Positions 347 to 18,903 of a stretch of 64,000 nucleotides of DNA are shown piece by piece; the first letter of the stretch is position 1; each line of letters starts with the position of its first letter. The notes beneath the pieces are model-generated. The model was not told where the DNA came from, ran no database searches, and was given only the letters and a program-made list of their open reading frames with translations. A program made the position numbers and the translations under genes. Source of the stretch: an uncultured Clostridia bacterium (GTDB lineage: Bacteria > Bacillota > Clostridia > TANB77 > CAG-508). Location of the stretch: contig CAKPCF010000004.1 of the NCBI GenBank assembly GCA_934141445.1, positions 15,526 through 79,525 of the forward strand, given 5' to 3'.

Positions 347-375
347 TTGACATTTATTCCCAATGGATTTATAAT
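347..375 (+). promoter_or_regulatory. Sigma-70-type promoter of the 64-aa ORF unit
   Basis: TTGACA (347-352), 17-nt spacer, TATAAT (370-375). Both hexamers match consensus exactly at optimal spacing, about 55 nt upstream of the ATG at 432. Confidence 0.55.
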
Positions 376-431
376 AAATTTATGCGGTATTTTGGTATCG
401 TAAATACATATTTTTTGAGAGGTATTTTGTT

Positions 432-626
432 ATGGCTTCTTTCGTGAAGAACTCGTGCATCAACAACCCCACCGTTACTGTACAGCGGATGACTAATTTC
501 ATGGTCGATCCTAAGCGTGTAGGAAATGCAGTTGCTAACAGCAACTATTACTGGTGGACTTGGCAACAAAAGCATCGTGAATTCTTGAAAAGCGTGGAGA
601 CAGCAAAACGTCAGGTTAACCTGTGA
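432..626 (+). CDS. Hypothetical 64-aa soluble protein (NYYWWTWQQ aromatic patch), foreign composition
   Basis: ORF track. GAGAGG (417-422) lies 9 nt before the ATG. Codons end mostly in G/C (hand count about 45% GC, 88/195). It has its own promoter and terminator. I recognise no family, and a non-coding RNA cannot be excluded. Confidence 0.45.
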   Translation: MASFVKNSCINNPTVTVQRMTNFMVDPKRVGNAVANSNYYWWTWQQKHREFLKSVETAKRQVNL

Positions 627-696
627 GCTGTATTCATAAGTCACAACATCAAAAAAGACTGAGGTTTCCCCCTAAAAACCTTAGTTAATCCTCACG

Positions 697-745
697 CACC
701 GTCAGTGAGCTGTCCAGCCTGGGCAACACTGACGGTGTTTTTATT
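697..745 (+). terminator. Rho-independent terminator of the 64-aa ORF unit
   Basis: An 11-bp perfect stem, CACCGTCAGTG (697-707) with CACTGACGGTG (727-737), is followed by TTTTTATTTTATT. Confidence 0.75.
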
Positions 746-775
746 TTATTCTGAAAAAATAGTAAACTCAATTTT

Positions 776-804
776 TTGACAATTATGTAAAGTCGTGTTA
801 TAAT
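776..804 (+). promoter_or_regulatory. Sigma-70-type promoter (extended -10) of the paralog pair
   Basis: TTGACA (776-781), 17-nt spacer, TGT-TATAAT (796-804). The hexamers match consensus exactly and there is a TGn extension. Confidence 0.6.
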
Positions 805-875
805 ATTGTTTATTCGAAATTATTTTTGATTTTTATGAAAGGGTGGTATTTTTTGACTACTTAGAATCACTTCAT

Positions 876-964
876 GTTCGAATATTCACCACTGCAAGAA
901 TATAATAGTTCTTGTTGCAAATGGAGCATTTGCTCTAAGGAGTAAAACAATGGAAGAAAACATT
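876..964 (+). repeat. Conserved structured leader, copy A (includes RBS and first 5 codons of the 950 gene)
   Basis: 83/89 nt are identical to 1329-1417 at a constant offset of 453 nt. It contains hairpin CAAGAAT/GTTCTTG, hairpin GCAAATG-GAG-CATTTGC, then AAGGAG 8 nt before the ATG. Confidence 0.85.
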
Positions 965-1312
965 GTAGCATGGACATTGCTGAATAGATTTGAGAAAGAC
1001 TATAACTTGATATCTTCTTTTCAGCCTAAATTTGAAACTGTGCAAAACTCTGATGCCTTTCAGAAGTTGCTCGATGAATGTGTCGGCTTTTTTGACTGTA
1101 CCCTTCTAGGTAGAGTAGATAATGGTGTTTTTCCTATTAGCTACAGCCTAATATGTGGAGTTATCGACACAACTTCAGAAATTAGAGAGATTGATAAGGA
1201 AATTCCTTTTTCTCTTGATATTGCACGTGATGCTGTTGTTAATATGCTGTCTGCATTAACGCAAGCTTATCAAAAGGAGCTTGAAATCTTTAAAAGAAAT
1301 AACAATCTTTAA
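950..1312 (+). CDS. Hypothetical 120-aa acidic protein, paralog 1
   Basis: ORF track with an AAGGAG RBS. By eye it is about 40% identical to the 1403 product (shared SSF..F..VQNSD.F..LL..C, FP.S, A.VNM..AL...YQKELE.F). No family recognised. Confidence 0.7.
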   Translation: MEENIVAWTLLNRFEKDYNLISSFQPKFETVQNSDAFQKLLDECVGFFDCTLLGRVDNGVFPISYSLICGVIDTTSEIREIDKEIPFSLDIARDAVVNMLSALTQAYQKELEIFKRNNNL

Positions 1313-1328
1313 AGACTTTACAACCAAA

Positions 1329-1417
1329 GTTCGAATATTCACCACTGCAAGAGTACAATAACTCTTGTTGCAAATGGAGCATTTGCTCTAAGGAGTAAAA
1401 CAATGGAAAAAGACATT
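1329..1417 (+). repeat. Conserved structured leader, copy B
   Basis: See copy A. The four differences upstream of the ATG all fall in the first hairpin (two stem pairs changed with pairing kept, one loop position). Confidence 0.85.
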
Positions 1418-1768
1418 AAGGAAATGTTGAAAACTTTCGAAGCAACCAATAGCTCTATCTCTTCTTTTCACCTTCAGTTCGGCTCTGTGCAAAACTCTGA
1501 TGAGTTTCTAGATTTGCTCATCAAATGTGCAAATTTTCTAGATGACGATGTCAAAAAAGGCATAGATGAAAGCATTTTTCCTGTAAGCAACTGTTTGGTC
1601 TGGGGGTTTAGTGATGTCATCAGTTACCTTATCCATGTAGATATCAATGTATATGAAAATTCTTATCCTCTTGATATCACTAGTGAGGCTATCGTCAACA
1701 TGATGTTTGCTTTGCGTTGTTCCTATCAGAAAGAGCTGGAGGCTTTTAGAAAAGACAACAAAGCTTAA
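1403..1768 (+). CDS. Hypothetical 121-aa acidic protein, paralog 2
   Basis: ORF track with the same AAGGAG RBS context. Paralogous to 950..1312. Confidence 0.7.
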   Translation: MEKDIKEMLKTFEATNSSISSFHLQFGSVQNSDEFLDLLIKCANFLDDDVKKGIDESIFPVSNCLVWGFSDVISYLIHVDINVYENSYPLDITSEAIVNMMFALRCSYQKELEAFRKDNKA

Positions 1769-1808
1769 AAAACTCACATCAATATTTCTTCTTTGTTTAA
1801 ATCCTAGC

Positions 1809-1876
1809 AAAAAGTTGCCAGTTCGTGCAAGATTTAGCTGAAATTGCTAATCATTGCACAGCTGGCAACTTTTTTA
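1809..1876. terminator. Long GC-rich bidirectional hairpin terminator
   Basis: AGTTGCCAG (1813-1821) pairs with CTGGCAACT (1862-1870), with further inner pairing (GTGCAA/TTGCAC). An A-run lies on the left and TTTTTT on the right. It can stop both the plus-strand paralog operon and the converging minus-strand sigma operon. Confidence 0.7.
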
Positions 1877-1950
1877 TTTATAAATCTTAAAACTAACAAA
1901 TTCATCTTCAAGTCATTGTAAAACTAACATTGTAATAATACTATAGCATT

Positions 1951-3054
1951 TTAATTACTATAATACATTGTAGCTCCACCAATAATTTCACCAGTAGTAG
2001 CATCAACAAAATAGTTCCATATTCCTTCTGTATATCTTTTTACAACATCTTTATAATTGTCTTCATATTTTATTGTTACTACCCAAGCATTTCTTATTCT
2101 CTCATCTATTAGATAATATTTTCTTGCTTCACTTGGATAATCTACGGTTTGCATTGGCTTATAAAATTCTTCTTTATTCAAACTTCTTTCATAAGCTTTA
2201 GTATTCATTTTTACAACTTCAAGTGTTGCATCAACAGAATCTATTTTATTGCTTTCTACATTTTCATCTTCCATTAAAGCTATTTTTATAGCCTCTTCTT
2301 TAGTAATTTTTATTTCGTTATTATCAAAAGATTCATTTTCTGTTCTAATATATTCAAATTTATTATCTTTTGCATTTATTTCGATACATATATATTCATA
2401 AGGATTATATGTTTCATCATATTTTTTTAGATATTCAATACTAACATAGTTGCCCTCTTCTTCATCCTTTTCACTATTTTTCTTAGCATCATATGATTTT
2501 ATTTCTGTAATATCATAACCTGTTGTATCAATATCAAATTGTTTTAAATATTTATTTGCAACTTTTTTAGCCTCTTCTTTTGATATTTTTTCATCTTCAT
2601 TTTGTGATTGCGTTTGATTATTCCAAATTTCAAAAAATTCGCCACTAAAACCATCTATAGATATAGAATAGTCATCTTCTGTTTCAAATCTATACATAAT
2701 TTTATCTGATTCTACATCTGCCTTATAGTTATCACTTCCTAGTATGTCGCTATTTAGCCCTGCTTTTTTTAGTTTCTTTATAGCAATTTCTTTTGCCTCT
2801 TCTTCTGATATATTAAATTTTTTATTTTCTTCTGTAATCTCAAAAGCTGGGTTTTCTATTTGTTTAGGTACTTTCCAAATTTTTTCTATTATTGTATTGC
2901 CGGCAAAGGCAACACCACTTATTGAAATTATAGTACACGCAACTAATCCTAATTTTTTAATACTGGTTACTTTGTTTGTTTTTTCATCTTCAGTACTATC
3001 CATTTTTGATATAGCTATTCTGAATTTTAGCTTTTCTTTTATATTGTCATTCAT
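1951..3054 (-). CDS. Membrane-anchored PepSY-repeat protein, probable anti-sigma factor by position
   Basis: ORF track. It has an N-terminal cytoplasmic segment, one TM helix (LGLVACTIISISGVAFA), then three I(S/T)xEEAKxxA PepSY-like repeats. Its start is 1 nt after the stop of the upstream sigma gene. Confidence 0.5.
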   Translation of the reverse strand: MNDNIKEKLKFRIAISKMDSTEDEKTNKVTSIKKLGLVACTIISISGVAFAGNTIIEKIWKVPKQIENPAFEITEENKKFNISEEEAKEIAIKKLKKAGLNSDILGSDNYKADVESDKIMYRFETEDDYSISIDGFSGEFFEIWNNQTQSQNEDEKISKEEAKKVANKYLKQFDIDTTGYDITEIKSYDAKKNSEKDEEEGNYVSIEYLKKYDETYNPYEYICIEINAKDNKFEYIRTENESFDNNEIKITKEEAIKIALMEDENVESNKIDSVDATLEVVKMNTKAYERSLNKEEFYKPMQTVDYPSEARKYYLIDERIRNAWVVTIKYEDNYKDVVKRYTEGIWNYFVDATTGEIIGGATMYYSN

Positions 3055-3055
3055 T

Positions 3056-3589
3056 TTATAGTACCTCCTCTTTTAAATACTTTCTTATCTTTTTTCTGGT
3101 TCTATGTAATTTAGTCTTTATATTAGACTCTGACAATCTTAACTCTTTAGCTATATCTTTAATCGAAATGTTTGAATAATAAAACATATTAAATATTTTT
3201 AACTCATCTGGTTTTATGTTTTTTATTTTATTGCACACCTCTTCGATTTTTTCAATTTCTTCTAAATATGATTCATAATAACTAAAGTCTAATGAATTTT
3301 CTATTTGTTCTAAATCTAGTGATAGTTTTCTTTTCTTAAGTTTTTCTTTTATTAGATTTCTAGTTATCCCTGAAATGTATGCTGATAAGTTTTCGATTTT
3401 GTAACCTTCTTCATTTCTTTTCCATACTACAAAGAAAGTATCTAATAAAATTTCTTCTTTATCTTCATTAGATAGATTGTTATATACAGTGTTTCTTATA
3501 ATTGTATTTACATATGGAGAAAAATCATCTACTATTTTGTCTATGTCTAACTCTTCTCCTTTTACATATTTTTCTATTTTACTTTCCAA
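3056..3589 (-). CDS. ECF-type RNA polymerase sigma-70 family factor
   Basis: 177 aa, with a region-2-like segment (FFVVWKR) and a region-4 HTH (ISIKDIAKELRLSESNIKTKLHRTRKKI). Confidence 0.8.
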   Translation of the reverse strand: MESKIEKYVKGEELDIDKIVDDFSPYVNTIIRNTVYNNLSNEDKEEILLDTFFVVWKRNEEGYKIENLSAYISGITRNLIKEKLKKRKLSLDLEQIENSLDFSYYESYLEEIEKIEEVCNKIKNIKPDELKIFNMFYYSNISIKDIAKELRLSESNIKTKLHRTRKKIRKYLKEEVL

Positions 3590-3658
3590 TTTAGTAACTC
3601 CTTTATAAGATATCTTACACTTGTATAGTATTTAAAACATAAAAAAGGTTACACAATA

Positions 3659-4276
3659 TTATAATAAATTTAATTCTTTAATTGTTTCAATTACACTTGC
3701 TACATTATCTGGTTCAACTTTCTTTGATAAAATTCCTAGCTTATTTCCTGTTACTATATTCTTTTGGTTATCATCTATAAATAAACATTCATTAGCAGTT
3801 AAGTTATATTTTTCTAATAATATTTTATATATTCCTTCATAAGGTTTAACTTGATGTACTTGGTATGATAGTATATATCCATCAACTAATTCAAATAATC
3901 CACTTCTTGCTACGTTTTCTGTCGTATACGAATTTATGTTTGATAATAAATAAACACTATATCCTTTGTTTTTTAGTTCTTTGATTAAATCTAAAATTTC
4001 CGTATTTACAAAAGCATAATTGTTGTAGTTATACCAAAAGTTTTTAATAAGTTCATCATTAGAATGATTTGTTCTATCAGATACAATATCTATTGCCTCT
4101 TCTCTTGATATATATCCTGTATCTATTAGTGCATATTCTAACCATTCTGGTGACTTTATTATATTTTCCATAATAAATTTTTGTTCTTCTTGGCTATCTG
4201 TAAATTTCTTTAAAACCTCTTCTACATTAAAATTTAAAATTACATTTCCTATATCAAATATTACATTTTTAATCAT
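3659..4276 (-). CDS. HAD-superfamily hydrolase (subfamily IA-like)
   Basis: N-terminal VIFDIGNVIL (motif I), LLSN (motif II) and FIDDNQKN (motif III). Confidence 0.75.
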   Translation of the reverse strand: MIKNVIFDIGNVILNFNVEEVLKKFTDSQEEQKFIMENIIKSPEWLEYALIDTGYISREEAIDIVSDRTNHSNDELIKNFWYNYNNYAFVNTEILDLIKELKNKGYSVYLLSNINSYTTENVARSGLFELVDGYILSYQVHQVKPYEGIYKILLEKYNLTANECLFIDDNQKNIVTGNKLGILSKKVEPDNVASVIETIKELNLL

Positions 4277-4320
4277 TTTCTTTCTCCTTTTGATTATTAA
4301 ATTATACCAGTTGTATTATA

Positions 4321-4866
4321 TCATAAGACATATTTGTATAAAAAACACTCTTTATCATGTGAATATATAACACCAATTGCTTGCAAATATGAATATATAA
4401 TTGTACTTCCAACAAACTTCATGCCTCTTCTTTGCAAATCTTTTGAAATAGAATCAGATAATTCATTCGTAGTTTTATCTATTTCATATATTGTTTGCTC
4501 TTTAGTAAATGTTCTTAAATAATTGTAAAAGCTTCCATATTCTTCTTGTATTGCTTTAAATATTTTGCTATTAGTTATAGTAGCTTTTATTTTTAATTTG
4601 TTTCTTATAATTTTCTTATTTTCTAATAGTTCTTGTATCTTTTCTTCATTATAAGAACAAATTTTCTCTATATCAAAATTATCAAACGCAATTCTAAAAT
4701 CATCTCGTTTATTAAGCACGCATTCCCAAGATAGTCCAGCTTGAAATGATTCGAGTATTAACATTTCATATAAATATTTTTCATCAAAATTTTGTTTGCA
4801 CCATTCATTGTCATGATATTCTATATATTTTTTATTCTTCAAATTACACCATTTGCATCTTGTCAT
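4321..4866 (-). CDS. tag: DNA-3-methyladenine glycosylase I
   Basis: 181 aa. CKWC..YHDNEWC zinc-snap N-terminus, LILESFQAGLSW, and typical Tag length. Confidence 0.85.
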   Translation of the reverse strand: MTRCKWCNLKNKKYIEYHDNEWCKQNFDEKYLYEMLILESFQAGLSWECVLNKRDDFRIAFDNFDIEKICSYNEEKIQELLENKKIIRNKLKIKATITNSKIFKAIQEEYGSFYNYLRTFTKEQTIYEIDKTTNELSDSISKDLQRRGMKFVGSTIIYSYLQAIGVIYSHDKECFLYKYVL

Positions 4867-4887
4867 TATTACTACTCCTAAAAGCTA

Positions 4888-5790
4888 TTATTCTTTTATA
4901 AAGTTTAGTATGTCTTCAAAAATTTGTTTGTGTTCAGTTTCATTTAGTAGTTCATGTCTTAAATCTTGATATATTTTATGTTGTGATTTAGTATATCCTA
5001 TTTTATTTAAAAATTTTTCTAATTCATCAAACTTTTTTGTACCTTGAATTACTGGATCTTTTTCTCCTGCAATTAGAAAAATCTTTAATTTTTTATTTTT
5101 CATTTTATATAAATTTGCTTTAAAAGCTCTGTCTAATAGCTTGTATAAGTTAATAAAACCATTCGTTGTAAATATAAAGCCGCATAATTCATCAGAATTA
5201 TAATTTTCAACATTACTATAATTTTTTGAAAGCCATTCGTTATCGTTTGTATATCCTTTATTATAAGATTTAAAAGTTAAATTATTTAAAACTTTGTTTG
5301 CTTTTTTATTTAGACCAAAATATTTAAAGGAATATGCAATTGCAATTGCAAACTTTGTAAATGGATTTTTTGTAGGTGGTCCACACAATATAAGTTTTTC
5401 TATTTCATTATCATATTTTTGTATATAACCTCTTGCAACTAATGTACCCATACTATGACTAAATAAATATACTGGATAATTACTATATTTTTCTTTTATA
5501 TAATTAGTTACATCATGTAAATCATTTACTATGAAATCCGTATTTTCTGTATAAAAGTATCCTAAATCTTCTGTGCTTTTAACACTATTTCCATGACCTC
5601 TATGGTCATTTATTATACAAATATATCCATTGTCTGCTAGATATTCCATAAATTCAAAATATCTTTCTTTATATTCAGACATACCATGTGAAATTTGTAC
5701 AATTCCATTTATTTTATCTTTTGGAATTGCATAAGCTATTTCTATTGGTAATCCATCACTACTAGATTCTATTATTTCTTTTTCTATCAT
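4888..5790 (-). CDS. Alpha/beta hydrolase (lysophospholipase / monoacylglycerol-lipase-like)
   Basis: HGMSEY..RY, DHRGHGNS, and nucleophile elbow SHSMG. Confidence 0.8.
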   Translation of the reverse strand: MIEKEIIESSSDGLPIEIAYAIPKDKINGIVQISHGMSEYKERYFEFMEYLADNGYICIINDHRGHGNSVKSTEDLGYFYTENTDFIVNDLHDVTNYIKEKYSNYPVYLFSHSMGTLVARGYIQKYDNEIEKLILCGPPTKNPFTKFAIAIAYSFKYFGLNKKANKVLNNLTFKSYNKGYTNDNEWLSKNYSNVENYNSDELCGFIFTTNGFINLYKLLDRAFKANLYKMKNKKLKIFLIAGEKDPVIQGTKKFDELEKFLNKIGYTKSQHKIYQDLRHELLNETEHKQIFEDILNFIKE

Positions 5791-5870
5791 ACAACCTCAC
5801 TACAATATTATTTTTATAGAACAGATTATAACATATTCAAAATATTTTTCAACTAATGTCTCATATAAAT

Positions 5871-5907
5871 GCCGAAGAGAGAGTTACAATCGTCCCTCTC
5901 TCTTGGC
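5871..5907 (-). terminator. Hairpin immediately 3' of the 60-aa ORF
   Basis: GCCGAAGAGAGAG (5871-5883) pairs with CTCTCTCTTGGC (5896-5907), about 12 bp with one bulge, starting 7 nt after the stop. The U-tract on the minus strand is weak (AUUUAUAU) and is stronger on the plus strand. Confidence 0.5.
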
Positions 5908-5913
5908 TTTTCT

Positions 5914-6096
5914 TTACCTCACCGTCTTTGCTGCCTCCATCAGTGCCTTGCTCTGCACAATGTACCACCGACCGTTGTCGTAGTAAGTAGTGATGCCAGG
6001 CAGGTTCTGATAAAAGGCTCGCAGTGTGTCGTACGCATCAGACTTATGGACAAAACCGAAGGCGTCTACGAGGATAAAGTTTTTAGTGTCGATCAT
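5914..6096 (-). CDS. Hypothetical 60-aa soluble protein, foreign composition
   Basis: ORF track (MIDTKNFILVDAFGFVHKSDAYDTLRAFYQNLPGITTYYDNGRWYIVQSKALMEAAKTVR). AAAGGAA RBS. Hand count 89/183 = about 49% GC. It has its own promoter and hairpin. No family recognised. Confidence 0.5.
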   Translation of the reverse strand: MIDTKNFILVDAFGFVHKSDAYDTLRAFYQNLPGITTYYDNGRWYIVQSKALMEAAKTVR

Positions 6097-6162
6097 AATG
6101 TTGTCGTTCCTTTCTGTAAAACAGGTTGTCGTTCGAACAGATTTATAATTAAATCTACCATA

Positions 6163-6191
6163 ATTATAGCACTTTTGGAAGATTTTTTCAA
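6163..6191 (-). promoter_or_regulatory. Sigma-70-type promoter (extended -10) of the 60-aa ORF
   Basis: On the minus strand: TTGAAA (6191-6186), 17-nt spacer, TGC-TATAAT (-10 at 6168-6163). Confidence 0.55.
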
Positions 6192-6293
6192 CTGGCTAGT
6201 CTTCATAAGAAAATCTTAATATAATTTTAAGTAATTCTTAAAACTTAATCTTCAATTTAGTTTTATAATGTTAGCAATAAGGAGGAGTATTAA

Positions 6294-7004
6294 ATGAAGA
6301 AAAAGAAGAAAAAAATAAGATGGTTACTTCTAATAATTATCATAATATATATTATTTTTCAAAATGATGCTTTTAATATTTTTTCAGAATATAAAACGAT
6401 AAAAGAAGACAAAAATAAAAATTATGCAGGAATTGGTCAACAAAAAGTAAAAAATCAGGATGGATATTTTACTACCTTTACAACTATTGATGATCATAAA
6501 AAAACATATATTGAATATAAACAAAATAATGCTTCTTGGAGTAATAATTCATACTGGGGCGGAACAATGGAAGAAAACGGCTGTGGAATAACAGCACTTG
6601 CAATTATTTTAAGTGGCTACAATAAAACTCACTCTCCTGAAGATCTTAGACAAAAATATTATCCTGTACTAAAATATGATTCTCTTTCAAAAGAATTATC
6701 TGATACATATAATATTGAAAATTCAGATTTTTATTATAACAATACATATTTTACACAAGAAAAATTGCAAGAACATTTAAAAACTAATAGACCTGTTTTG
6801 ATTTGTGTATGGAGCAAACATTATAGTAATCGTTGGACATCTGCCTCACATTATATGGTTTTACTAGCTACTGATGATAATAATATGGTATATGTTTCAA
6901 ATCCTAATGGTGGAGAAAATGATTTCAAAAGTTCAGGATGGTATAATTTCCAAGAAATAATTCCTTATATTGCTAAAGTTTTATACATAGAAAGTTATAA
7001 TTAA
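6294..7004 (+). CDS. Secreted/anchored papain-like cysteine peptidase (C39-like fold)
   Basis: Lys-rich N-terminus plus TM helix, catalytic-Cys context ENGCGITALAIIL, and His context SASHYMVLL followed by SNPNG. Confidence 0.55.
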   Translation: MKKKKKKIRWLLLIIIIIYIIFQNDAFNIFSEYKTIKEDKNKNYAGIGQQKVKNQDGYFTTFTTIDDHKKTYIEYKQNNASWSNNSYWGGTMEENGCGITALAIILSGYNKTHSPEDLRQKYYPVLKYDSLSKELSDTYNIENSDFYYNNTYFTQEKLQEHLKTNRPVLICVWSKHYSNRWTSASHYMVLLATDDNNMVYVSNPNGGENDFKSSGWYNFQEIIPYIAKVLYIESYN

Positions 7005-7051
7005 AGAGCTACTTCAAAATAGTAGCTCTTTAGTTTAAATATAAATACAAA

Positions 7052-9103
7052 TTATTTTTCCTTAATAATATTTTTACTACAAATATAAGTTACTAAGAAA
7101 TATCCACCATATATTGCTATTATAAATACTGCTGTTACAATTATTGATTGTAATAGCTTTTCATTACCAAAAGCACTTAATATGAAATTGCACAATTTTA
7201 TACCAAATATAGAATGAATAATTGCCACTAGAAGAGGAAACATAAAGAATATTCCTATTTGTCTAAATAATGCTTTATTTATCATTTTTTCATCTACACC
7301 AATTTTTCTTAACATTTTAAACTTTTCTACATTATCACTAGATTCAGATAATTCTTTAAGTGCTAAAATTGCTGCACAAGATATTAAGAAAATAATTCCT
7401 AAATAAAGTCCTATAAATGTTGCCATACCACCTAAACCCAAACTTGCTTCTGCAATATATGTTCTTGTTCTAGCTTCTAATGTAGTACTACTTACATATT
7501 CTTCTTTATCTATTGCCTGTATCTTGGCATCAATTTTCCTTTTTTGTTCAGTGTTATTAGCTTTATAATTAGCAATCATTATTTCGTTTTCTTTTTTCAA
7601 TCCAACAATTGCGTCATCAGGAACAACAAAAAATCCAAAATTTGCATAACTAGCATTCATGCTATAAAAGCCATTTTTACAACTTGAATACTTTGGACTA
7701 TATTCTTTATTATTTATTGTTATTTTTGTTCCTAATTTTAAACCTTCATCTCTTATTTCACTCCATTCTTTATAATTAGAAACTATAATATATTCATCAT
7801 TGTCTAAAGAATATTCTTCCAAGTTAAATATTTTTGCTATTTTATTATAATCGCTTATTCTTATTAAAGTTTCTACACTATCATACATTAAAAATGGATA
7901 TTTTTCTTTAGATATTTCGTAATAGTCTCCTAAAGTATCTCTTACCTTTAAATCACTTTGTACATAAATATTAAATTTTACTATATCTTTAAGATTTTCA
8001 TTTATATCAAATTTTAATTTATCTAAAGTTTCTTCCAAACCAATTTTCGAATCTTTTTTCTCTTGCTCAGAATATTTACTATTATCATCTGGGATATTTG
8101 ATTTTTTAGTGAATTCTATATCAGCTGGTGCCAATGTATTCAAATTGTTAGTCATAGAGTTTTTTAATGATAAAGCACTTGATAATACACATATTGTTAT
8201 AAAAAGCATAAGACATATTACAGTCATAGAAAAAGCCATTGTATTTATCTTGCTTGAAAACTGCCTTAAAGTAAAACTATTTAATCCTTTATAATATGTG
8301 TTTTTCATACTCATAAATATTTTTAGCAATAATCCAGATAAAGACCAAAAAATCAAAAATGTTGATATAGCTCCTATAGCAATAGGAATAAAAATATTAT
8401 TTGCATTTGATAATTTATCAATTCCACCAGTAACTTGATAATATGCATATCCTAAAGCTATACAAGAGGCAATAAATATGATTGTACATAGCCAAGGATT
8501 TTTTAATTTTATTTGTTCTGATTTTTTACTAGAATGTAATAAATCAATCAACTTGCATTTACTGATATTTATTGTATTAAATATCATAACAATAAAATAC
8601 ATAATACCAAAATATATTAAAGTCTTTATACATGCTGTTTTAGAAAATATAAATTGAAACTTTGTTAAATCTGCTTCAAACATATTTGCAACTAATATAC
8701 TCATTAGTTGTGACAATAAAAATCCCACACCTAAGCCAACTACTAATGACATAATTCCTATTATCAGAGTTTCAAAAAATAATATCAATGATATTTTTCT
8801 TTTACTCATTCCAAGTGTTAGATATATGCCAAATTCTTTATTTCTTCTTTTTATTAAAAACCTACTTGCATATATAATTAAAAATGCAAGTATAAATGAT
8901 ACAAACACACTAATATCAGATAGTATATTTGTCATAAGTTTTATTATCTCATATGTAGAAGAGGATACATTCATCATAACTGTTTGATCGTCTATTGCAT
9001 TAAATATATAAAAAATTGCAACACCAAGTATTAGAGTAAAAAAATAGATGGCATAATCTTTTATACTCTTACTTATGTTTTTTAATGACAATTTAAAGAG
9101 CAT
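7052..9103 (-). CDS. BceB-type ABC transporter permease (FtsX-like, 10 TM with a large extracellular domain)
   Basis: 683 aa with two FtsX-type 4-TM bundles flanking an extracellular domain of about 200 aa. It overlaps the upstream ATPase gene. Confidence 0.8.
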   Translation of the reverse strand: MLFKLSLKNISKSIKDYAIYFFTLILGVAIFYIFNAIDDQTVMMNVSSSTYEIIKLMTNILSDISVFVSFILAFLIIYASRFLIKRRNKEFGIYLTLGMSKRKISLILFFETLIIGIMSLVVGLGVGFLLSQLMSILVANMFEADLTKFQFIFSKTACIKTLIYFGIMYFIVMIFNTINISKCKLIDLLHSSKKSEQIKLKNPWLCTIIFIASCIALGYAYYQVTGGIDKLSNANNIFIPIAIGAISTFLIFWSLSGLLLKIFMSMKNTYYKGLNSFTLRQFSSKINTMAFSMTVICLMLFITICVLSSALSLKNSMTNNLNTLAPADIEFTKKSNIPDDNSKYSEQEKKDSKIGLEETLDKLKFDINENLKDIVKFNIYVQSDLKVRDTLGDYYEISKEKYPFLMYDSVETLIRISDYNKIAKIFNLEEYSLDNDEYIIVSNYKEWSEIRDEGLKLGTKITINNKEYSPKYSSCKNGFYSMNASYANFGFFVVPDDAIVGLKKENEIMIANYKANNTEQKRKIDAKIQAIDKEEYVSSTTLEARTRTYIAEASLGLGGMATFIGLYLGIIFLISCAAILALKELSESSDNVEKFKMLRKIGVDEKMINKALFRQIGIFFMFPLLVAIIHSIFGIKLCNFILSAFGNEKLLQSIIVTAVFIIAIYGGYFLVTYICSKNIIKEK

Positions 9104-9860: not shown

Positions 9861-9951
9861 AATCTTTCTCCTTTCTTTCTACATTGTAGTACGAAAGATA
9901 AGATTCGTCGTTATTCTAATATTACAGAACATTACAATTTTGTAATGTTGG

Positions 9952-11630: not shown

Positions 11631-11658
11631 ATATTGTTAGTCCTTCCATATTACAAAC

Positions 11659-12177
11659 TTATAAATACTGAACAAATTCTTCTATAGCTTTTCTTGAAAA
11701 ATGTAAATTTTTATTAGGCTCGCAATCTTCTGACATATAACCAATTGGCATCATAAAAATTGGTTTTATATTTTCAGGTAATTCCAAAACATTTTTTATA
11801 TCATCTTGCTTAAATGCTCTTACCCAACATGAACCAATTCCTAAATCCCATGCTTTTAACATTGCATATGTGCCTATAATACTTAAATCCATTTCAGCAG
11901 TATTATATTTTCCCTCTCTTTTGTTATTCCAAACAATATCCATATCACAACAAAAAAGCAAAATAATTGGTGCATCAAAAGTCATTCTACAAACTGATTT
12001 GATTTTTTCTTTATATTCTTCACTTTTTATTACATAAATTTTTTGCGGTTGTAAGTTGCACGCTGTTGGTGCTAATCTAACCATTTTCATTATTTCATCG
12101 ATTTTTTCTTGTTCAATTTCTTTGTTTGAGAAACTTCTAACTGAAAATCTTTCCCTTATTATTTCATCAATATTCAT
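11659..12177 (-). CDS. Nitroreductase-family protein
   Basis: RFSVRSF..., APTACNLQP. The 172-aa length is typical. Confidence 0.8.
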   Translation of the reverse strand: MNIDEIIRERFSVRSFSNKEIEQEKIDEIMKMVRLAPTACNLQPQKIYVIKSEEYKEKIKSVCRMTFDAPIILLFCCDMDIVWNNKREGKYNTAEMDLSIIGTYAMLKAWDLGIGSCWVRAFKQDDIKNVLELPENIKPIFMMPIGYMSEDCEPNKNLHFSRKAIEEFVQYL

Positions 12178-12188
12178 TAAAATACCTC

Positions 12189-13235
12189 CTAATTATTTTC
12201 AATTTGATTTGTTTCACTTAATAGCCTATCAAAATCTGATACATAATTTTTATCCTGTATAACTTTATATTTTTCATATTCGTTCTCCGCTTTTTCAACT
12301 GCTTGTTTATGTGAAATCTTACCTTTTCCATCTAAAACTTCATAATGGAAAACCTTCAAAGCATTTTCTACTTCATTTTTCCAATCTTCCATATACATAG
12401 TTATATTTCTTTCTGCATTATTTTCAGCAATATCCAAAAATAAGTTTACTAAATTATTCAAATTTTTCATTTCTTTTTCATCTAAATAATTTTTGGCAAC
12501 GATTACATCAGATTTTAATATTTTTCCATCTGGTGAGTTTTCCCAAGTAGTAAGTCCCATATGCTTTTTTTGAGAATCTGCTCTGTTATAAACTATTTCA
12601 GCAGCTGTATTTCCTGTAATTGCAAAATGAAACTTATTTTGAATGGTTTTATAAAAAATTATTGCAGTATCACTATTTTTATCATAATCAATAGAACATT
12701 CAGCAAATATATCAGTAATTTTTTGATAAAACATTCTCTCACTTGTACGAATTAACTTAATTCTTTCAAGTAATCTTTTAAAATACTCTTGATCAGATTT
12801 TTTTGCTTTTAAAAATCTTTCATCATTTAAAGCAAAACCTTGAACCATATAATCTTTAATTATTTTATTTGCCCAAGTTCTAAACTTTATTGCTTTTTTA
12901 GAGTTAACTCTAAAACCTATTGAGATAATCATATCAAGATTATAATATGGATAAATTCTTTTAACCTCACGAGTTCCTTCTATTTGAACTTGTGCAATTT
13001 TTGCACAAGTTGTATTTGCATCCAACTCTTCATCCTTATAAATATTGTTAATATGTCTTACAATTCCACTTCTGTCAATATTAAAAAGTGTTGCTAATGC
13101 TTCAGTATTTAACCATACATCTTCATTTTCTAATAGAACTTCTACTTTTGTATTGCCTTCTTCATCACTATAAAATAAAATGTTTTTCTCATTTCCAATT
13201 GATTTGTTATCCAATGCTTGTCCCTCCTTTTTCAA
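12189..13235 (-). CDS. RhuM-family protein
   Basis: The N-terminal FYSDEEGNTKVEVLLENEDVWLN and YNLDMIISIGFRVNSKKAIKFRTWA are the characteristic RhuM pattern. Confidence 0.8.
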   Translation of the reverse strand: MKKEGQALDNKSIGNEKNILFYSDEEGNTKVEVLLENEDVWLNTEALATLFNIDRSGIVRHINNIYKDEELDANTTCAKIAQVQIEGTREVKRIYPYYNLDMIISIGFRVNSKKAIKFRTWANKIIKDYMVQGFALNDERFLKAKKSDQEYFKRLLERIKLIRTSERMFYQKITDIFAECSIDYDKNSDTAIIFYKTIQNKFHFAITGNTAAEIVYNRADSQKKHMGLTTWENSPDGKILKSDVIVAKNYLDEKEMKNLNNLVNLFLDIAENNAERNITMYMEDWKNEVENALKVFHYEVLDGKGKISHKQAVEKAENEYEKYKVIQDKNYVSDFDRLLSETNQIENN

Positions 13236-13422
13236 ATATTTTCAGTTAATTTATACTATAACATTTATTTCGATTTGCTTCTTTTTGAATTGCCAAGAAT
13301 TCCTTGACAGTTCAATTTATGTCTATTTTTTTCATTCACGAACATCTGTATTGTATCACACATATATAAAAGATTCAATCTTTTATAGTTAATTTGGTAA
13401 CTTGTTTTTATAATATTAAAAT

Positions 13423-13465
13423 AAAAAGAGTTAGTACAATATCCTATATACTAACTCTTTTTATT
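13423..13465 (-). terminator. Bidirectional hairpin terminator downstream of secA
   Basis: AGAGTTAGTA (13427-13436) pairs with TACTAACTCT (13449-13458), flanked by an A-run and a T-run. Confidence 0.65.
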
Positions 13466-13556
13466 TATTATACAATGTTTAAAGTTGACAATTCGTTGAC
13501 AAATTGATAATTTATATAAATTATGTTAAGCAGTAAAATCTATGTAGCCATTGCTA

Positions 13557-16337
13557 TTATTGATTTCTTCCACAACAGTTCTTATACTTCTTACCACTTC
13601 CACAAGGGCATGGGTCGTTTCTACCAACTTTTGGTCCATCATTTTTTATTTGTTGTGCTTTTTCATTTGAAGATTTGTTTGGAACTGTTTCACCTTCAAT
13701 ATTCATACCATCTATTGCACTTCTATCCATTGATGCAGATGTTATACTAACAGCACTCTTTCTTTCTGCAGTTTTTTCTTGTTTTCTAACATGTAACATG
13801 ATTTTTGCAACTTCAAGTTTGATTTGAGCAATCATCTCATCAAACATTTCGCCACCTTCGATTCTATATTGAACAACAGGATCTTTTTGACCATAAGCTC
13901 TTAAGCCTATACCATTTTTTAATTCATCCATATTATCAATATGATCCATCCATTTGTTATCTACAACTTTCAATAAAACAACTCTTTCAAGTTCTCTTAT
14001 TGGTTCGCCAATGCTTGCTTCTTTTTGCTCATAAGCAGCTAATACTTTTTCTTGTAATTCTTCAAGTAACTCTTTTACATGTATTTTTTCTTCTTTTAAA
14101 GCGTCAACATCTGTAATAACAAAGTTTGCAAATATTTCATTTGCTAAAGTTTCTCTATTGATTGAATTATCTTCAATTTCTGGTCTATATGTTTCTACAA
14201 ACATTTCAACTGATTCATTAAGCATTGATATAATGTTATCACGAATATTTTCACCATCTAAAACTTTTCTTCTTTCAGAATAAATTATATCTCTTTGAAC
14301 ATTCATTACATCATCATAGCTTAAAATATGTTTACGAATTGAGAAGTTTCTACCTTCAACTTTACTTTGTGCAGTTTCAATTGTTTTTGCAACTAATTTG
14401 ACTTCAATAGGTAAATCTTCTGGTAAATTTCCTCTTTCAAAAATATTTGTGATCATATCACCACCAAATATTTTTAATAAATTATCATCAAGTGCAAGAT
14501 AAAATCTAGTTTCACCTGGATCTCCTTGACGACCACTACGTCCTCTTAACTGATTATCAATTCTTCTTGACTCATGACGTTCTGTACCTATGATTTTTAA
14601 GCCACCTGCTTCGATTACTTTCTCTTTTTCTTCTTTTATTTCTTTATCGTATTTTTCTTCTAGTTCTTTAAATTTCTTTCTTGCTTCTAATATTTCTTCA
14701 TCTTTTGTTTCATTAAAAGCTGTTGCTTGAACAATAAGTTCTTCACTATATTTTAGCTTTCTCATTTCTTGTTTAGCCAAATATTCACTGTTTCCACCAA
14801 GCATAATATCAGTACCACGGCCTGCCATATTGGTTGCAATAGTAATTGCATTAAATTTACCAGCTTGTGCAATGATTTCAGCTTCTTTTTCATGATTTTT
14901 AGCATTTAAAACTTCGTGTTTTAAGCCTTCTTTATCTAATAATTTACTTAATTTTTCAGATTTATCAATTGAAACAGTACCAACTAATATTGGTTGACCT
15001 TTGCTATGTGCTTCTTTTATATCAGCTATAATTGCTCTATATTTAGCTGCTTCATTTTTATAAATAATATCTGTTAAATCTTTTCTAATTAAAGGTTTGT
15101 TTGTAGGTATTTCAATAACATCTAAGTTATAAATTTCTTTAAATTCTGCTTCTTCTGTCATTGCAGTACCTGTCATACCAGAAAGTTTTTCATACATTCT
15201 AAAATAATTTTGATATGTAATAGTAGCTAAAGTTTTTGATTCATCAGCAATTTTAACATTTTCCTTAGCTTCAATTGCTTGATGTAAACCATCACTATAT
15301 CTTCTACCATACATTATACGACCTGTGAACTCATCTACAATTAAAACTTCTCCATCTTTAACAATATAATCAATATCTTTCTTCTTTACACCATGAGCAT
15401 GTAATGCTTGATTTATATTATGAACTAAATCTGAGTTTTCCAAATCGTTTAAATTTTCAACGCCAAAGAATGATTCTGCTTTCTTTGTACCTTTTTGAGT
15501 TAAAGTTGCTGATTTAGCTTTTAAGTCTACTATGTAATCATAATTTTCATTGTCTTCTGCTTGATCAACATCTTTTGCATCTTCTTCAATTATAACTTTT
15601 GGTGTTAGTTTTCTGACAAAAGAATCTGCTTTTTTATATAAATCTGAAGATTTATTTGCTCTTCCTGAAATAATAAGTGGTGTTCTTGCTTCATCTATTA
15701 AAATACTATCTATCTCATCAACAATAGCATAATTCAATCCTCTTTGTACCATATCTTCTTTGCGGATAACCATATTATCTCTTAAATAGTCAAAACCATA
15801 TTCACTATTTGTACCATAAGTTACGTCTGCATTATACGCTTGTCTTTTTGCTACTGGATCCATTCTACTTAGAATTAGGCCAACACTTAATCCTAAAAAT
15901 CTGTATACTTTTCCCATCCAGTCACTATCTCTTTTTGCTAAGTATTCGTTAACAGTAACAACATGTACACCTTTACCTGTTAAAGCATTTAAATAAACTG
16001 GCAATGTAGCAACTAAAGTTTTTCCTTCACCAGTTTTCATTTCTGAAATTCTACCTTGGTGAAGTATAATACCACCTATCAATTGTACATCAAAGTGTCT
16101 CATTCCTAATACTCTTTTTGATGCCTCTCTAACTACTGCAAAAGCTTCTGGTAAAATATCATCTAATGTTTTTCCATTTGCTAATTGTTCTTTAAAATAA
16201 TTTGTTTTATCTGCCAATTCTTTATCTGATAATTTTTCCATTTCTGGTTCTAAACTATTGATTTTTTCTACTATTGGCATTACTCTTTTTACTTCTTTTT
16301 CACTATATGTTCCAAAAATTTTTTTAAATAATCCCAT
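13557..16337 (-). CDS. secA: Preprotein translocase ATPase SecA
   Basis: 926 aa. MKTGEGKTL Walker [18 protein letters not shown], and the C-terminal zinc finger [13 protein letters not shown]. Confidence 0.97.
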
Positions 16338-16435
16338 TTAAAAGCCTCCTAAAGTTATCTGCAAATCCTTTGTAAAATTTGTCTTATAAACTATATCATT
16401 AAATAACGCAAATTGCAAGTTTTAGAAATAATCTT

Positions 16436-17732
16436 TTATCTAAAAGTTATATCTGCTTTATCATATTCTTCTGGTTTTAAACCTAATCTAGTAAGCATAT
16501 ACACGTATAATATAAATGTAAATACTAAAAAGATTATTCCGCCTATTATCATAGATATTTTTATGTCAAAATGATTTAATATTACAGTACCTACTATTCC
16601 AACTAACATTCTCATTAAGTTTGAAACTATTGACTCTGTTGTATATACTTTTGCCAAAGTTTCATCATCTATAAAATTGTTCATATATTGTCTTTTTAAA
16701 ATTTGAGAAATTCCTTTGCACATTCCAACCAAAAAATATGCAAATAAAATTACAGCCAATTTAATAATTAAATGAAGATTAGATAAAGCCACCAAACCAC
16801 ATATTACAAAACTTAGTGAATTCCATACTCCGTATTACAGTCAATGTTTTATTTCTATATTTCCTATTTGTTTCAACTGCAGTTTTAGAAGCAATTCCTA
16901 CAAAGACTTGATATAAAGCATCAAATATTCCTATTACAGTTGCTGACACTCCAATTTGATCAAGTAAATCAACCTTATATGTATTAAACAAGCAAATTAT
17001 TCCCCATAAAAATCCTACTGAAAAAAGTAAAGCTCTTAATCGTTTAGAATTAAATATGAAAGAAAATGATTCTTTTAAATTTTTAATATATTCTTTAAAA
17101 TTGCCTTTAGTTTTTTCCTTTTCATTCTGCTCTTCTAATCTTATATCACTAAAGTTTGCCGAAATAAGAGTAGCAAGTAATGAACAAATAAAACATAATA
17201 TCATTGGTATATATGGATTGATATCATACAAAACTCCTGCTAATATTGATGAAACAGCTGCTACATAACAATACTTTGAGTATCCTTTTGCATTTATGCT
17301 TGAAAATATTTCATTTTTATTTGTACATTCAGGAATTGAATCATTTAATATACATGATTCTGTTATTCCTTTTAAAGCAAAGGCTATTGCTGTTACACAC
17401 TCCTCTATTAAAAATGTTAAAAAATTAGGACAGAATATAACTGTTAATATACATAGTGTATTTATTATATTCCCTATAAGAAGTGATTTACTTTTTCCAA
17501 CTTTATCTACAAAAACTAAAGCTGGTATTTGTACTACTATACTTGTAAAGGCATAGGCAGAACCAGCTAAAACAATTTCAGATACACTAATCCCCTTTAA
17601 TTGTGTTAGAAACAGTACTTGTATTGCATAATAAAAAATAAAATCCAATCCAAGCATATTATAAATTGGAAATATTTTGATATTCAATTTTCTCTTTTTT
17701 CTCTCTTCAACATCTTTTTCTTTTGTTTTCAT
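16436..17732 (-). pseudogene. MFS transporter interrupted by a single frameshift
   Basis: The 317-aa and 119-aa ORFs are contiguous halves of one polytopic protein. Around 16830 the hydrophobic reading continues in the +1 frame (..YGVWNSLSFVICGLVALSNLHLII..), while the upstream frame ends 17 codons later at the TAA at 16779-16781. The site is not in a homopolymer run. Confidence 0.65.
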
Positions 17733-17831
17733 TTTTATTTCCTATCTTTTATTTAATATAATTTTATATACTATTTTATATCATTTAACTCCAAAAAAGT
17801 AAACTGCTTTTATCACATTTTAACATATTGC

Positions 17832-17887
17832 TCATACACTTTACTAATTTTAATATTAAAAGATGGTTTATATGTTTGTTTTCAATT
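17832..17887 (+). repeat. 56-bp direct repeat, left copy (decayed copy of the RBS and first 5 codons of the 18344 gene)
   Basis: 53/56 identical to 18304-18359 at an offset of 472 nt. The SD is AGATGG here versus AGGTGG in the right copy. The ATG at 17872 opens a 36-codon frame that runs into the island. Confidence 0.9.
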
Positions 17888-17888
17888 A

Positions 17889-17929
17889 TAAAAAAGAAAA
17901 CTCCCACTCAGCCAAGTTGCCAAATGGGA
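17889..17929 (-). terminator. Possible terminator of the 59-aa membrane ORF
   Basis: On the minus strand a short stem UCCCA/UGGGA (17929-17925 / 17906-17902) is followed by GUUUUCUUUUUU. The stem is weak and the U-tract is strong. Confidence 0.4.
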
Positions 17930-17956
17930 TAAAAGAAAAATTCTTTTCGATTGCGC

Positions 17957-18136
17957 TTAGAGAATCCAAGCCACCCAAGTAAGTCCGATAAGCACAATGG
18001 TTGCTAGAAGCAACCACTTTTCGTTCTTGTTACCATTGTAATACTTGCCAAACAGCAAGCCTACAAAGATACCAAAAACGATGCACCATACAAACACCAG
18101 AGTAACGCGGGTAGCAGCAAGATCATTAAAAAGCAT
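17957..18136 (-). CDS. Hypothetical 59-aa two-TM membrane miniprotein, foreign composition
   Basis: Hand translation: MLFNDLAATRVTLVFVWCIVFGIFVGLLFGKYYNGNKNEKWLLLATIVLIGLTWVAWIL. AAGGAG lies 8 nt upstream of the ATG at 18136. Hand count 75/180 = about 42% GC. It is one codon short of the ORF-track cut-off. Confidence 0.55.
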   Translation of the reverse strand: MLFNDLAATRVTLVFVWCIVFGIFVGLLFGKYYNGNKNEKWLLLATIVLIGLTWVAWIL

Positions 18137-18206
18137 TTTACACTCTCCTTCGCTTCGTAGCTTTACTGAAAAAATATGCTATGTGAACCCAATCAAATAT
18201 ATTTAT

Positions 18207-18235
18207 ATTATACCACAGTTTATGTTAACTGTCAA
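18207..18235 (-). promoter_or_regulatory. Sigma-70-type promoter (extended -10) of the 59-aa ORF
   Basis: On the minus strand: TTGACA (18235-18230), 17-nt spacer, TGG-TATAAT (-10 at 18212-18207). Confidence 0.6.
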
Positions 18236-18303
18236 AAAAGTTATTATTTTTCACAAAAGTATGATTGAAAAATAAAAATCTTTATCATAATTTTGTTTCT
18301 TTA

Positions 18304-18359
18304 TCATACACTTTACTAACTTTAATATAAAAAGGTGGTTTATATGTTTGTTTTCAATT
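18304..18359 (+). repeat. 56-bp direct repeat, right copy (functional RBS and start of the 18344 gene)
   Basis: See the left copy. It contains AAAGGTGG and the ATG at 18344. Confidence 0.9.
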
Positions 18360-18901: not shown

Positions 18902-18903
18902 TA

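Follow-up and report, generated by a model that had tools for sequence, protein, structure and literature searches.

Small GC-rich expression units in an AT-rich gut Clostridia chromosome as probable members of a mobile, clade-specific gene pool

Introduction

An abrupt jump in G+C content (GC), accompanied by a promoter and a terminator of its own, is routinely read as the mark of a recent import. Three such islands in the chromosome of an uncultured Clostridia bacterium raise the question of whether this reading holds. The islands were examined in a stretch of 64,000 nucleotides (nt), referred to as the window (G000:C4:15526-79525), at window positions 347-1880 (island 1), 5871-6191 (island 2), and 17888-18303 (island 3). 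The source genome, G000, comprises 1.64 Mb in 59 contigs, has a GC of 27%, and is 99.5% complete; other genomes are labeled G0xx, among them the congeners G023, G015, and G056, and contigs with related loci are labeled L0xx. The reading of recent import failed on its key prediction. The islands are probably natural, insulated accessory units belonging to a clade-specific mobile pool of small genes, in which GC-richness is a persistent property and not the fingerprint of a recent donor.

Composition and architecture of the islands

A preliminary description of the sequence had proposed that the islands share one building plan, consisting of an abrupt rise in GC, a consensus or near-consensus promoter, a tiny first open reading frame (ORF), a hairpin terminator, and an intergenic position next to host operons. 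All of these features were recovered. In sliding windows of 300 nt, GC peaked at 0.44 (451-750), 0.44 (5851-6150), and 0.37 (17851-18150), against 0.20-0.28 in the surroundings. Codon usage deviated as well, with GC at third codon positions (GC3) ranging from 0.29 to 0.64 in the island ORFs compared to a host median of 0.13 and a 95th percentile of 0.17 (639 long ORFs of at least 300 codons). Specifically, GC3 was 0.54 in the ORF of 64 amino acids (aa) and 0.29 and 0.40 in the 120-aa and 121-aa ORFs of island 1, 0.64 in the 60-aa ORF of island 2, and 0.47 in the 59-aa ORF of island 3, so that the first ORFs measure 64, 60, and 59 aa as described.

Sequences matching TTGACA-N17-TATAAT at all 12 positions were found in window 1-20000 only at 347-375 (+), 776-804 (+, with a TG extension), and 18235-18207 (-, with a TG extension). 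The remaining island promoter, at 6191-6163 (-), matched at 11 of 12 positions (TTGAAA) and carried the TG extension. The spacer was thus 17 nt in all four island promoters, and TATAAT was present throughout, with TG in three of the four. The terminator hairpins of islands 1 and 2 reached predicted folding energies of -40.8, -36.2, and -21.9 kcal/mol, with z-scores of -5.9 to -8.0 against shuffled sequences, and island 3 ended in an 11-bp stem with a U-run. All units were located in intergenic positions between ordinary chromosomal genes, and the islands were single-copy, with no copies elsewhere in G000.

Movement and insertion of the units

Island 2 is read from the minus strand and includes a promoter (6163-6191; TTGAAA-17-TATAAT with TG), a leader (6097-6162), the 60-aa ORF (5914-6096; GC 0.49), and a terminator hairpin (5871-5907; z -6.4, with a weak U-tract). 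The leader contains the palindrome AGATTTA-ATT-ATAAATCT as well as GTTCGAAC, and its predicted RNA fold was not significant (z -0.1). The ORF belongs to a family of 50-60 aa, referred to as the 53-aa family (MIDTKNY..GVTTYYDNGxWYIVQSK), in which 22 residues are invariant. The protein database yielded 12 relatives, and the GTDB species representatives yielded 14 loci. When these loci were compared, homology started exactly at the -35 element and stopped just past the terminator, and the flanks were unrelated; the shared unit amounted to only about 330 nt and was found in 13 distinct flank contexts among 19 loci. The promoter type was kept in nine of the 14 species' copies of the family, and the terminator kept its loop, CGATTG(C/T)AA, across contexts with varying stems. 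One relative resides on a contig resembling an integrative and conjugative element (ICE; L039-L041), together with a group II intron reverse transcriptase and LPD28-like, ParB_N, MobL, DUF3846, and T4 coupling protein genes. Others were found in an island with a recombinase and a RhuM gene, or between uvrA and gpr, and a further relative adjoins what we take, from its sequence and outside any family search, to be an Rpn-like gene. Judged by these alignments, the island-2 unit demonstrably moves whole between contexts. An empty site for island 2 was not found in the congeners, because the synteny of the flanking hydrolase and C39 genes is not kept in them; for islands 1 and 2 alike, no empty site was identified, and neither was present in the DNA of 60 congeners.

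For island 3, a congener preserves the site without the unit. The gap between the MFS transporter gene and the DUF1980 gene measures 140 nt in G056 and 592 nt in the window, and the additional DNA follows codon 6 of the DUF1980 gene, with a direct-repeat copy on either side. The left copy (17832-17887, +) duplicates the ribosome-binding site and the first six codons of the DUF1980 gene, and the right copy (18304-18359, +) is continuous with the intact gene, whose ATG is at 18344; the gene stays intact because the repeat duplicates these elements. The repeat spans 56 nt with three mismatches, extends to 95 nt at 82% identity, and scored 49 against a null maximum of 17. Relative to congener G056, island 3 is an insertion. 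On the minus strand, it carries a promoter (18207-18235; TTGACA-17-TATAAT with TG, the spacer containing TTAACATAA), the 59-aa ORF (17957-18136) with two hydrophobic, apparently transmembrane segments, and a terminator (17890-17929; stem at 17902-17929) that is 97% identical in L049. In L049 and L050, an orthologue of the 59-aa ORF with 85% identity adjoins the DUF1980 gene (ratio of nonsynonymous to synonymous substitution rates, dN/dS, 0.35).

The insertion and duplication left a remnant at 17863-17982 (+), a 39-aa ORF that starts with the duplicated DUF1980 codons (MVYMFVFN..) and continues into island 3 in antisense orientation. L049 and L050 retain island 3 and lack the left repeat, the MFS gene, and a 119-aa ORF, so that secA abuts the island. 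Compared with window 16340-17890, this corresponds to a deletion or rearrangement of about 1.5 kb next to the cassette. Flanking direct repeats were also considered as a general insertion scar. A flanking repeat above chance was absent in 17 of 18 cassettes, with island 3 as the sole exception, and since none of the 17 others has one, the candidate was rejected.

Island 1, on the plus strand, includes two units. The first consists of promoter P1 (347-375; TTGACA-17-TATAAT, 12/12, without TG), the 64-aa ORF (432-626; GC 0.45), which is a Trp-rich orphan, and terminator T1 (657-748), a double hairpin (657-686 and 696-738) with a U-run (-40.8 kcal/mol, z -5.9). The second is an operon of two paralogues with 40% aa identity, in which promoter P2 (776-804; TTGACA-17-TATAAT with TG, the spacer containing TTATGTAAA) is followed by a structured leader of 145 nt (805-949), ORF A (950-1312, 120 aa; GC3 as listed, 0.29), a second leader copy (1329-1402), ORF B (1403-1768, 121 aa; GC3 as listed, 0.40), and terminator T2 (1809-1884), whose hairpin at 1809-1874 (-36.2 kcal/mol, z -8.0) precedes U6. 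The second leader copy is a direct repeat (D2, about 74-77 nt) of the last 74 nt of the first (876-949, starting with GTTCGAATATTC) at 93% identity. In the predicted leader RNA, a long-range TTCGAA/TTCGAA helix (813-818 with 877-882) is joined by two hairpins before the Shine-Dalgarno (SD) sequence, and the copies differ by one compensatory change, from A-U to G-C, as read from the alignment. The genome holds three copies of this leader, the third of which is at G000:C5:71825 and starts with GTTCGAATAT.

The duplicated leader also accounts for two of the three sites of the heptamer GTTCGAA (876 and 1329 in island 1, and 6131 in island 2), which the preliminary description had considered unexpected in the leaders of islands 1 and 2. 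Its rarity was borne out, as only 48 strand-counted sites were found in 1.64 Mb, a three-fold under-representation. As a common signature of the cassettes, the heptamer was rejected: the island-1 copies represent one duplicated leader, an additional TTCGAA is found at 813-818, not at 825, where it pairs with 877-882, and the context of the island-2 site is unrelated to the island-1 sites.

In the close relatives L051 and L056, ORF B is missing, and a single 130-aa gene is closer to ORF A, yet it is preceded by a leader of the ORF-B type. This single-gene locus is a mosaic, for which recombination in the repeated leader is the best explanation. The 130-aa gene shares 73% nt identity with ORF A inside a block of 96-98% identity. 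Across the locus, identity to L056 was 81-87% on the prfB side (-797 to 660) and 96-98% on the sigma-operon side (661-4263), and because it switches there, a breakpoint of homologous recombination lies near 660, inside island 1.

Distribution across the genome and the genus

The preliminary description had considered three such units within 18 kb to be odd. Genome-wide, 33 perfect promoters were found, where base composition alone would predict about 2.5. Directly downstream of 14 of them was DNA with a GC of at least 0.36, which makes up 3% of the genome (p 3e-13). A heuristic census (GC of at least 0.40 and GC3 of at least 0.42) identified 43 loci with GC3-deviant ORFs, of which at least about 20 had a promoter matching at 10-12 of 12 positions, mostly with a 17-nt spacer and often with TG. 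Many of these loci had a terminator, and the products were mostly orphans. With 0.47 units expected per 18 kb, the probability of three or more was 0.012 per window, in a genome of about 91 such windows. Since the class is spread over the genome, three or four units in 18 kb represent only a mild cluster and no local anomaly.

Congeners carried different cargo on the same plan. For example, in G023 (L012:1868-2650, G023:C6), the slot upstream of prfB that holds island 1 in the window is occupied by a different GC-rich ORF of up to 246 aa, with a TTGAAA-N17-TATAAT promoter (+TG), GGAGG, and a terminator hairpin. Another cargo was found in G015.

Several further loci in G000 were observed. In the cassette at G000:C5:71790-72680, an island-1-like leader (GTTCGAATAT, hairpin, and SD) directly follows the promoter and precedes an apparently unrelated GC-rich ORF; the gene upstream of this cassette is presumably a phosphofructokinase, by our own reading outside a family search. 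Additionally, two full-size genes at G000:C13:18067-19512 (481 aa) and C1:85654-86943 (429 aa) have a GC of 40-43%, and the latter is just downstream of a perfect promoter at C1:87034, on the minus strand. From the same kind of reading, again made outside a family search, we take them to encode an adenylosuccinate-lyase-like enzyme and a peptidase-like protein, respectively. Because these two genes are also GC-deviant, the anomaly in composition is not limited to tiny orphans.

A motif in the promoter spacer, T[TA]ACATAA / TTATGT[TA]A, was found at 20 of 120 promoter-like sites before GC-rich DNA and at 17 of 2,750 before host-like DNA (Fisher p 5e-19). It was present in P2 of island 1, in the island-3 promoter, and in five of the 14 species' copies of the 53-aa family. 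The pattern TTGACA-N0-3-TTATGTAAA (reverse: TTTACATAA) occurred seven times in G000 and up to 33 times per congener genome, compared to 0-1 for a reversed control; genus members with this subtype included, for example, G008, G010, G041, G049, and G055. The motif was rejected as exclusive to GC-rich cassettes, as it is genus-wide and also precedes host-like genes. Since it precedes host-like genes across the genus, it is a candidate genus-typical promoter subtype or operator that is used preferentially by the cassettes.

Turnover of the ORFs and apparent persistence of GC-richness

Comparison with close relatives revealed that the ORFs diverged three to ten times as much as the flanking genes, and most promoters and terminators were conserved. 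In island 3 versus L049, identity was 97.5% in host genes, 91% in the ORF, 89% in the promoter, 97% in the terminator, and 83% in the leader. In island 2 versus L048, the corresponding values were about 97%, 90%, 100%, 100%, and 75%. In island 1 versus L056, the host genes of the right flank were 96-98% identical and the ORFs 65% (64-aa ORF) and 73% (ORF A), with P2 at 97%, P1 at 69%, T1 at 96.5%, T2 at 83%, and leader 2 at 94.5%; T1 is thus nearly identical while the ORF that precedes it is only 65% identical. By our own estimate, AT-biased mutation acting on GC-rich DNA perhaps explains a change about 2.5-fold faster. Because this falls short of the ten-fold difference in island 1, we infer a replacement of alleles from a pool.

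Classical genomic islets would offer another explanation, in which the units were recently imported from an unsampled donor, phage, or plasmid of about 45-50% GC and are decaying toward the AT content of the host. The GC3 of the islands, far above the host median, and the absence of island 3 from G056 are consistent with such an import. Similarly, differences between the window and L049 were skewed 11:4 toward A/T in L049, the GC3 gradient from 0.29 to 0.64 within the 53-aa family could represent stages of amelioration, and AT-biased mutation would account in part for how much faster the ORFs diverge, by the 2.5-fold estimated above. The search for a donor, however, pointed elsewhere. No GC-rich donor and no homologues outside the close AT-rich relatives were found in a database of 5.8 billion proteins or among 1.8 billion representatives, and searches of plasmids (DNA and protein), phages (protein, INPHARED), and IMG/VR returned no relatives of the island ORFs. 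Two IMG/VR matches of the 59-aa protein covered only a hydrophobic stretch of 19 residues and were rejected, as was a match of the 64-aa ORF to a 2051-aa protein, which was weak and repeat-amplified. The one family that could be traced, the 53-aa family, was confined to AT-rich Clostridia: all 14 GTDB loci were in uncultured gut Clostridia with a flank GC of 0.25-0.33 and an ORF GC3 of 0.29-0.64, and among 400 genomes sampled from the class, only two carried it, both of the same family.

The changes within the ORFs also argue against import. The sole relative of the 64-aa ORF is of equal length and occupies the corresponding locus in a close relative (58% aa identity, dN/dS 0.21), and the two alleles, at a synonymous divergence (dS) of about 1.6, both keep a GC3 of 0.46-0.54. 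In the 60-aa ORF, polarized changes between the window and L048 were balanced, with six from GC to AT and six from AT to GC against a ratio of about 10:1 expected from the bias of the host (p 3e-4), and with a ratio of 4:3 at third positions (p 0.02). With no donor, AT-rich carriers, and no net decay from GC to AT, a foreign composition due to recent import does not fit, and we regard it as unlikely. Excess mRNA structure was also considered as a cause of GC-richness. Relative to synonymous shuffles, the mRNA of the 59-aa ORF was more structured (z -4.6), and the other four ORFs ranged from -0.7 to -1.8, so that this cause was rejected for four of the five.

A natural pool of mobile units with persistent GC-richness thus remains the probable explanation, and several observations weigh against it. 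The polarized counts are tiny and the outgroups saturated. The GC3 range of the 53-aa family could reflect ongoing decay, and so could the ORF differences in island 3, where a manual count found G/C in the window and A/T in L049 at 11 of 15 positions. P1 is only 69% identical in L056, so that the conserved scaffold of island 1 comprises T1, P2, leader 2, and, less so, T2 (83%). Flanking repeats were found in island 3 only, and no common insertion chemistry is visible. Furthermore, the census was built on ORF heuristics and not on gene calls, and some of its GC-rich loci are ordinary enzymes.

Under the preferred explanation, each unit consists of a near-consensus promoter of the housekeeping type, an SD sequence, one or two small ORFs with GC-rich codons, and an intrinsic terminator. 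Its own promoter would make expression independent of the neighbors, and its terminator would prevent read-through, so that a unit could land harmlessly in any intergenic gap. The pool of small genes would extend over chromosomes as well as ICE-like elements, in gut Clostridia that are uncultured and AT-rich. Its content would turn over by recombination, for which the pattern is apparent and the mechanism presumed, through the movement of a whole unit to a new context (island 2), through insertion (island 3), or through an exchange of ORFs within a scaffold whose promoter, leader, and terminator are conserved (island 1). In AT-rich hosts, GC-rich codons would be a lasting property of the units. 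A broader proposal is a tentative possibility that we would not expect to hold. It would place the units in a distinct class of insulated single-gene elements found in bacteria with small, AT-rich genomes across distant phyla, in which active maintenance keeps the ORFs GC-rich against the mutational bias of the host and the content is rapidly exchanged within conserved scaffolds. If it does hold, the composition would be functional, for example in the survival of the mRNA or in an expression regime of its own, or would be driven by GC-biased conversion linked to recombination. Some of the units might then also be regulated jointly through the TTTAYRTAAA-type motif in the promoter spacer.

Coding status and possible roles of the products

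All five ORFs were under purifying selection, with dN/dS values of 0.10-0.40, and searches of Pfam, PHROGs, and NCBIfam found nothing meaningful for any of them. The 60-aa ORF encodes a predicted soluble mini-protein and the paralogues A and B predicted four-helix bundles, whereas the 59-aa product has two hydrophobic segments and the 64-mer is rich in Trp. The 60-aa protein (dN/dS 0.10 versus L048) was modeled with AlphaFold2 (AF2) at a pLDDT of 92 as a beta-alpha-beta-beta-alpha fold, for which Foldseek found no analogue in the PDB. ORF A (dN/dS 0.40 versus the relative) gave a four-helix bundle at a pLDDT of 85 with only generic helical-bundle matches in the PDB. For ORF B, dN/dS was 0.28 versus the relative's gene, and it was 0.27 between the paralogues A and B. 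By analogy, the proteins may serve accessory functions that vary between strains, for example in exclusion, immunity, or anti-defense.

A narrower proposal, concerning function only, is that the units are strain-variable cargo of the defense type, for example orphan immunity proteins directed at contact-dependent toxins, anti-defense proteins of conjugative elements, or exclusion proteins. It would explain the strong constitutive promoters, the tandem paralogues with repeated leaders, and the rapid turnover of alleles. The small orphan ORFs evolve fast under purifying selection, the paralogues of island 1 each follow a conserved leader, and the 53-aa family occurs among cargo genes of an ICE-like element, all of which are consistent with it. 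On the other hand, no immunity or anti-defense family was matched in Pfam, PHROGs, or NCBIfam, no cognate toxin or recombinase was found nearby, and the folds are generic; as a specific assignment, we consider it quite unlikely.

Island 3 alone could also be viewed as a module resembling type I toxin-antitoxin systems, in which a strongly transcribed, structured mRNA encodes a small hydrophobic membrane peptide under RNA control. The two hydrophobic segments of the 59-aa protein, the perfect promoter, the stand-alone intergenic position, and the structured ORF mRNA, which sets this ORF apart from the other four, point in this direction. However, no promoter-like site of at least 10/12 was found on the opposite strand in 17888-18303, no second small RNA was recognizable, and no family was matched in Pfam, NCBIfam, or PHROGs. 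At 59 aa, the protein would be at the large end for such toxins, and a small membrane protein fits a role in exclusion or immunity equally well, as does HK97 gp15 (PMC3594210). Such a module therefore appears improbable. Within the ORF, a perfect palindromic hairpin of 8 bp (TGGTTGCT-AGA-AGCAACCA, 17998-18016) was observed, which adds to the stability of the mRNA.

In AT-rich genomes, spikes of GC are usually due to structured RNA genes, which raises the alternative that the islands encode non-coding RNAs and that the ORFs are incidental. The length of the spikes, 300-400 nt, is in line with this, as is the strong folding of the terminators and of leader 2, and T1, P2, and leader 2 are far better conserved than the ORFs. 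Against this, Rfam identified no family at gathering score in the whole window and only chance-level matches at E<=5 in island 1, and ARAGORN found neither a tRNA nor a tmRNA. The ORFs remain open across diverged copies with dN/dS of 0.1-0.4, excess structure is absent in four of the five, and the 53-aa family combines 22 invariant residues with a model of pLDDT 92. The conservation of the non-coding parts matches the flank baseline of 96-98%. Specifically, an exceptionally conserved non-coding RNA in 661-949 was rejected, as its identity of 95-97% equals the flank baseline on a longer contig. Non-coding RNA genes are hence a very improbable explanation.

The preliminary description had also advised that engineered or in-silico inserted cassettes be excluded. 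Island 1 and its flanks were found at 100% identity over up to 2,400 nt (window 1-2400) in three contigs from different studies, including Hadza samples, and at 99.2% in a fourth independent contig, and 23 contigs of independent human-gut metagenome assemblies encoded a protein identical to the 120-aa product. Diverged copies at the same loci were identified for island 1 in L051-L053 and L056-L059, for island 2 in L048 and L065, and for island 3 in L049 and L050. Although the textbook promoters and terminators and the abrupt composition shifts look designed, an assembly chimera, contamination, or an artificial insertion can virtually be dismissed, because the same DNA with the same junctions recurs in independent assemblies and, in diverged form, in related genomes, with purifying selection on the ORFs and with the identical perfect promoter in tRNA genes of G000 (about six of the 33).

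Genomic neighborhood

The genes that neighbor the islands are ordinary chromosomal genes. They include prfB, an extracytoplasmic function (ECF) sigma/anti-sigma pair, a HAD hydrolase, an adenine glycosylase, an alpha/beta hydrolase, a C39-like peptidase, an FtsX/ABC pair, a two-component system, a nitroreductase, RhuM, SecA, an MFS transporter, the DUF1980 protein, and an AI-2E transporter. Among the neighbors scanned, no recombinase, integrase, relaxase, type IV secretion system (T4SS) gene, or cognate toxin adjoined the three islands. The RhuM-family gene is at window 12189-13235 (-; Pfam E 1e-101). In L042, a RhuM gene adjoins a serine recombinase, in an island that also bears a homologue of the island-2 cassette. 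Upstream of island 1, prfB (window -100 to 192, extending into the upstream contig region) appears in the gene calls of related contigs as two products of 40 and 344 aa. Release factor 2 genes usually show such a split because of their programmed +1 frameshift.

Significance

If the GC-richness is maintained, codon composition would inform on expression, RNA stability, or recombination, which amelioration models ignore, and tools that call genomic islands would misclassify a gene pool that is native and specific to the clade. The units also reveal many small orphan proteins, predicted to be strongly expressed, in abundant uncultured Clostridia of the human gut. In addition, they supply natural, compact, insulated expression cassettes together with a candidate operator in the promoter spacer that many of them have in common.

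Comparison with known systems

A literature search for the cassette pattern returned only the literature on morons and on acquired interbacterial defense (AID). Among other systems, integron cassettes, which are promoterless ORFs with an attC site in arrays adjoining intI, attI, and Pc, differ in that each unit here has its own promoter and the only repeat is the island-1 leader, with three copies; no recombinase was present among the scanned neighbors, and no genome-wide search for IntI was made. Transposons and miniature inverted-repeat transposable elements (MITEs), with their terminal inverted repeats and short target-site duplications, differ in that 17 of 18 cassettes lack flanking repeats, and the 56-nt duplication of island 3 is far longer than the target-site duplications of transposases. 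Type I toxin-antitoxin systems resemble island 3 in a small hydrophobic peptide, a strong predicted promoter, a structured mRNA, and a stand-alone intergenic position, and differ in that island 3 has 59 aa with two hydrophobic segments and neither an antitoxin RNA nor a family match was found for it.

In recombinase-associated AID (rAID) arrays, which adjoin a tyrosine recombinase, each gene is reportedly preceded by a conserved intergenic sequence. Island 1, with two paralogues each behind a 74-nt leader of 93% identity, shows a resemblance to this arrangement and only that. The arrays of gut Bacteroidales consist of small, rapidly evolving orphan immunity genes (bioRxiv 10.1101/471110). In contrast, island 1 has only two genes, which resemble no known immunity family, and neither an adjacent recombinase nor a toxin partner was found. 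Cargo of ICEs in Firmicutes is similar in that the island-2 homologue on L039-L041 is a unit with its own promoter and terminator among MobL, ParB_N, and coupling-protein genes. It differs in that the islands of the window have no adjoining integrase, relaxase, or T4SS, and the unit of about 330 nt is alone common to the contexts.

The preliminary description had compared the islands to phage morons. In the concept of Juhala and Hendrix, morons are transcribed independently, between a promoter and a terminator of their own, and differ in GC from their neighbors (PMC3594210). They sit between conserved genes where relatives lack them, have homologues outside prophages as well, and often encode small proteins, including small membrane proteins such as HK97 gp15 (PMC3594210). 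The comparison held for the autonomy of the units, their deviant GC, and their placement between operons, and island 3 also represents extra DNA between genes that are adjacent in a relative (592 versus 140 nt). It did not hold for the phage context: the neighbors are chromosomal, and the islands matched nothing in PHROGs, INPHARED, or IMG/VR, so that they are not morons in the strict sense. The island units also differ in being numerous on a cellular chromosome and in congeners, in a composition that appears persistent, and in ORFs that turn over inside conserved regulatory scaffolds. Even if they should represent ordinary turnover of mobile cargo, they would provide a clean and well-bounded case of moron-type evolution outside phages.

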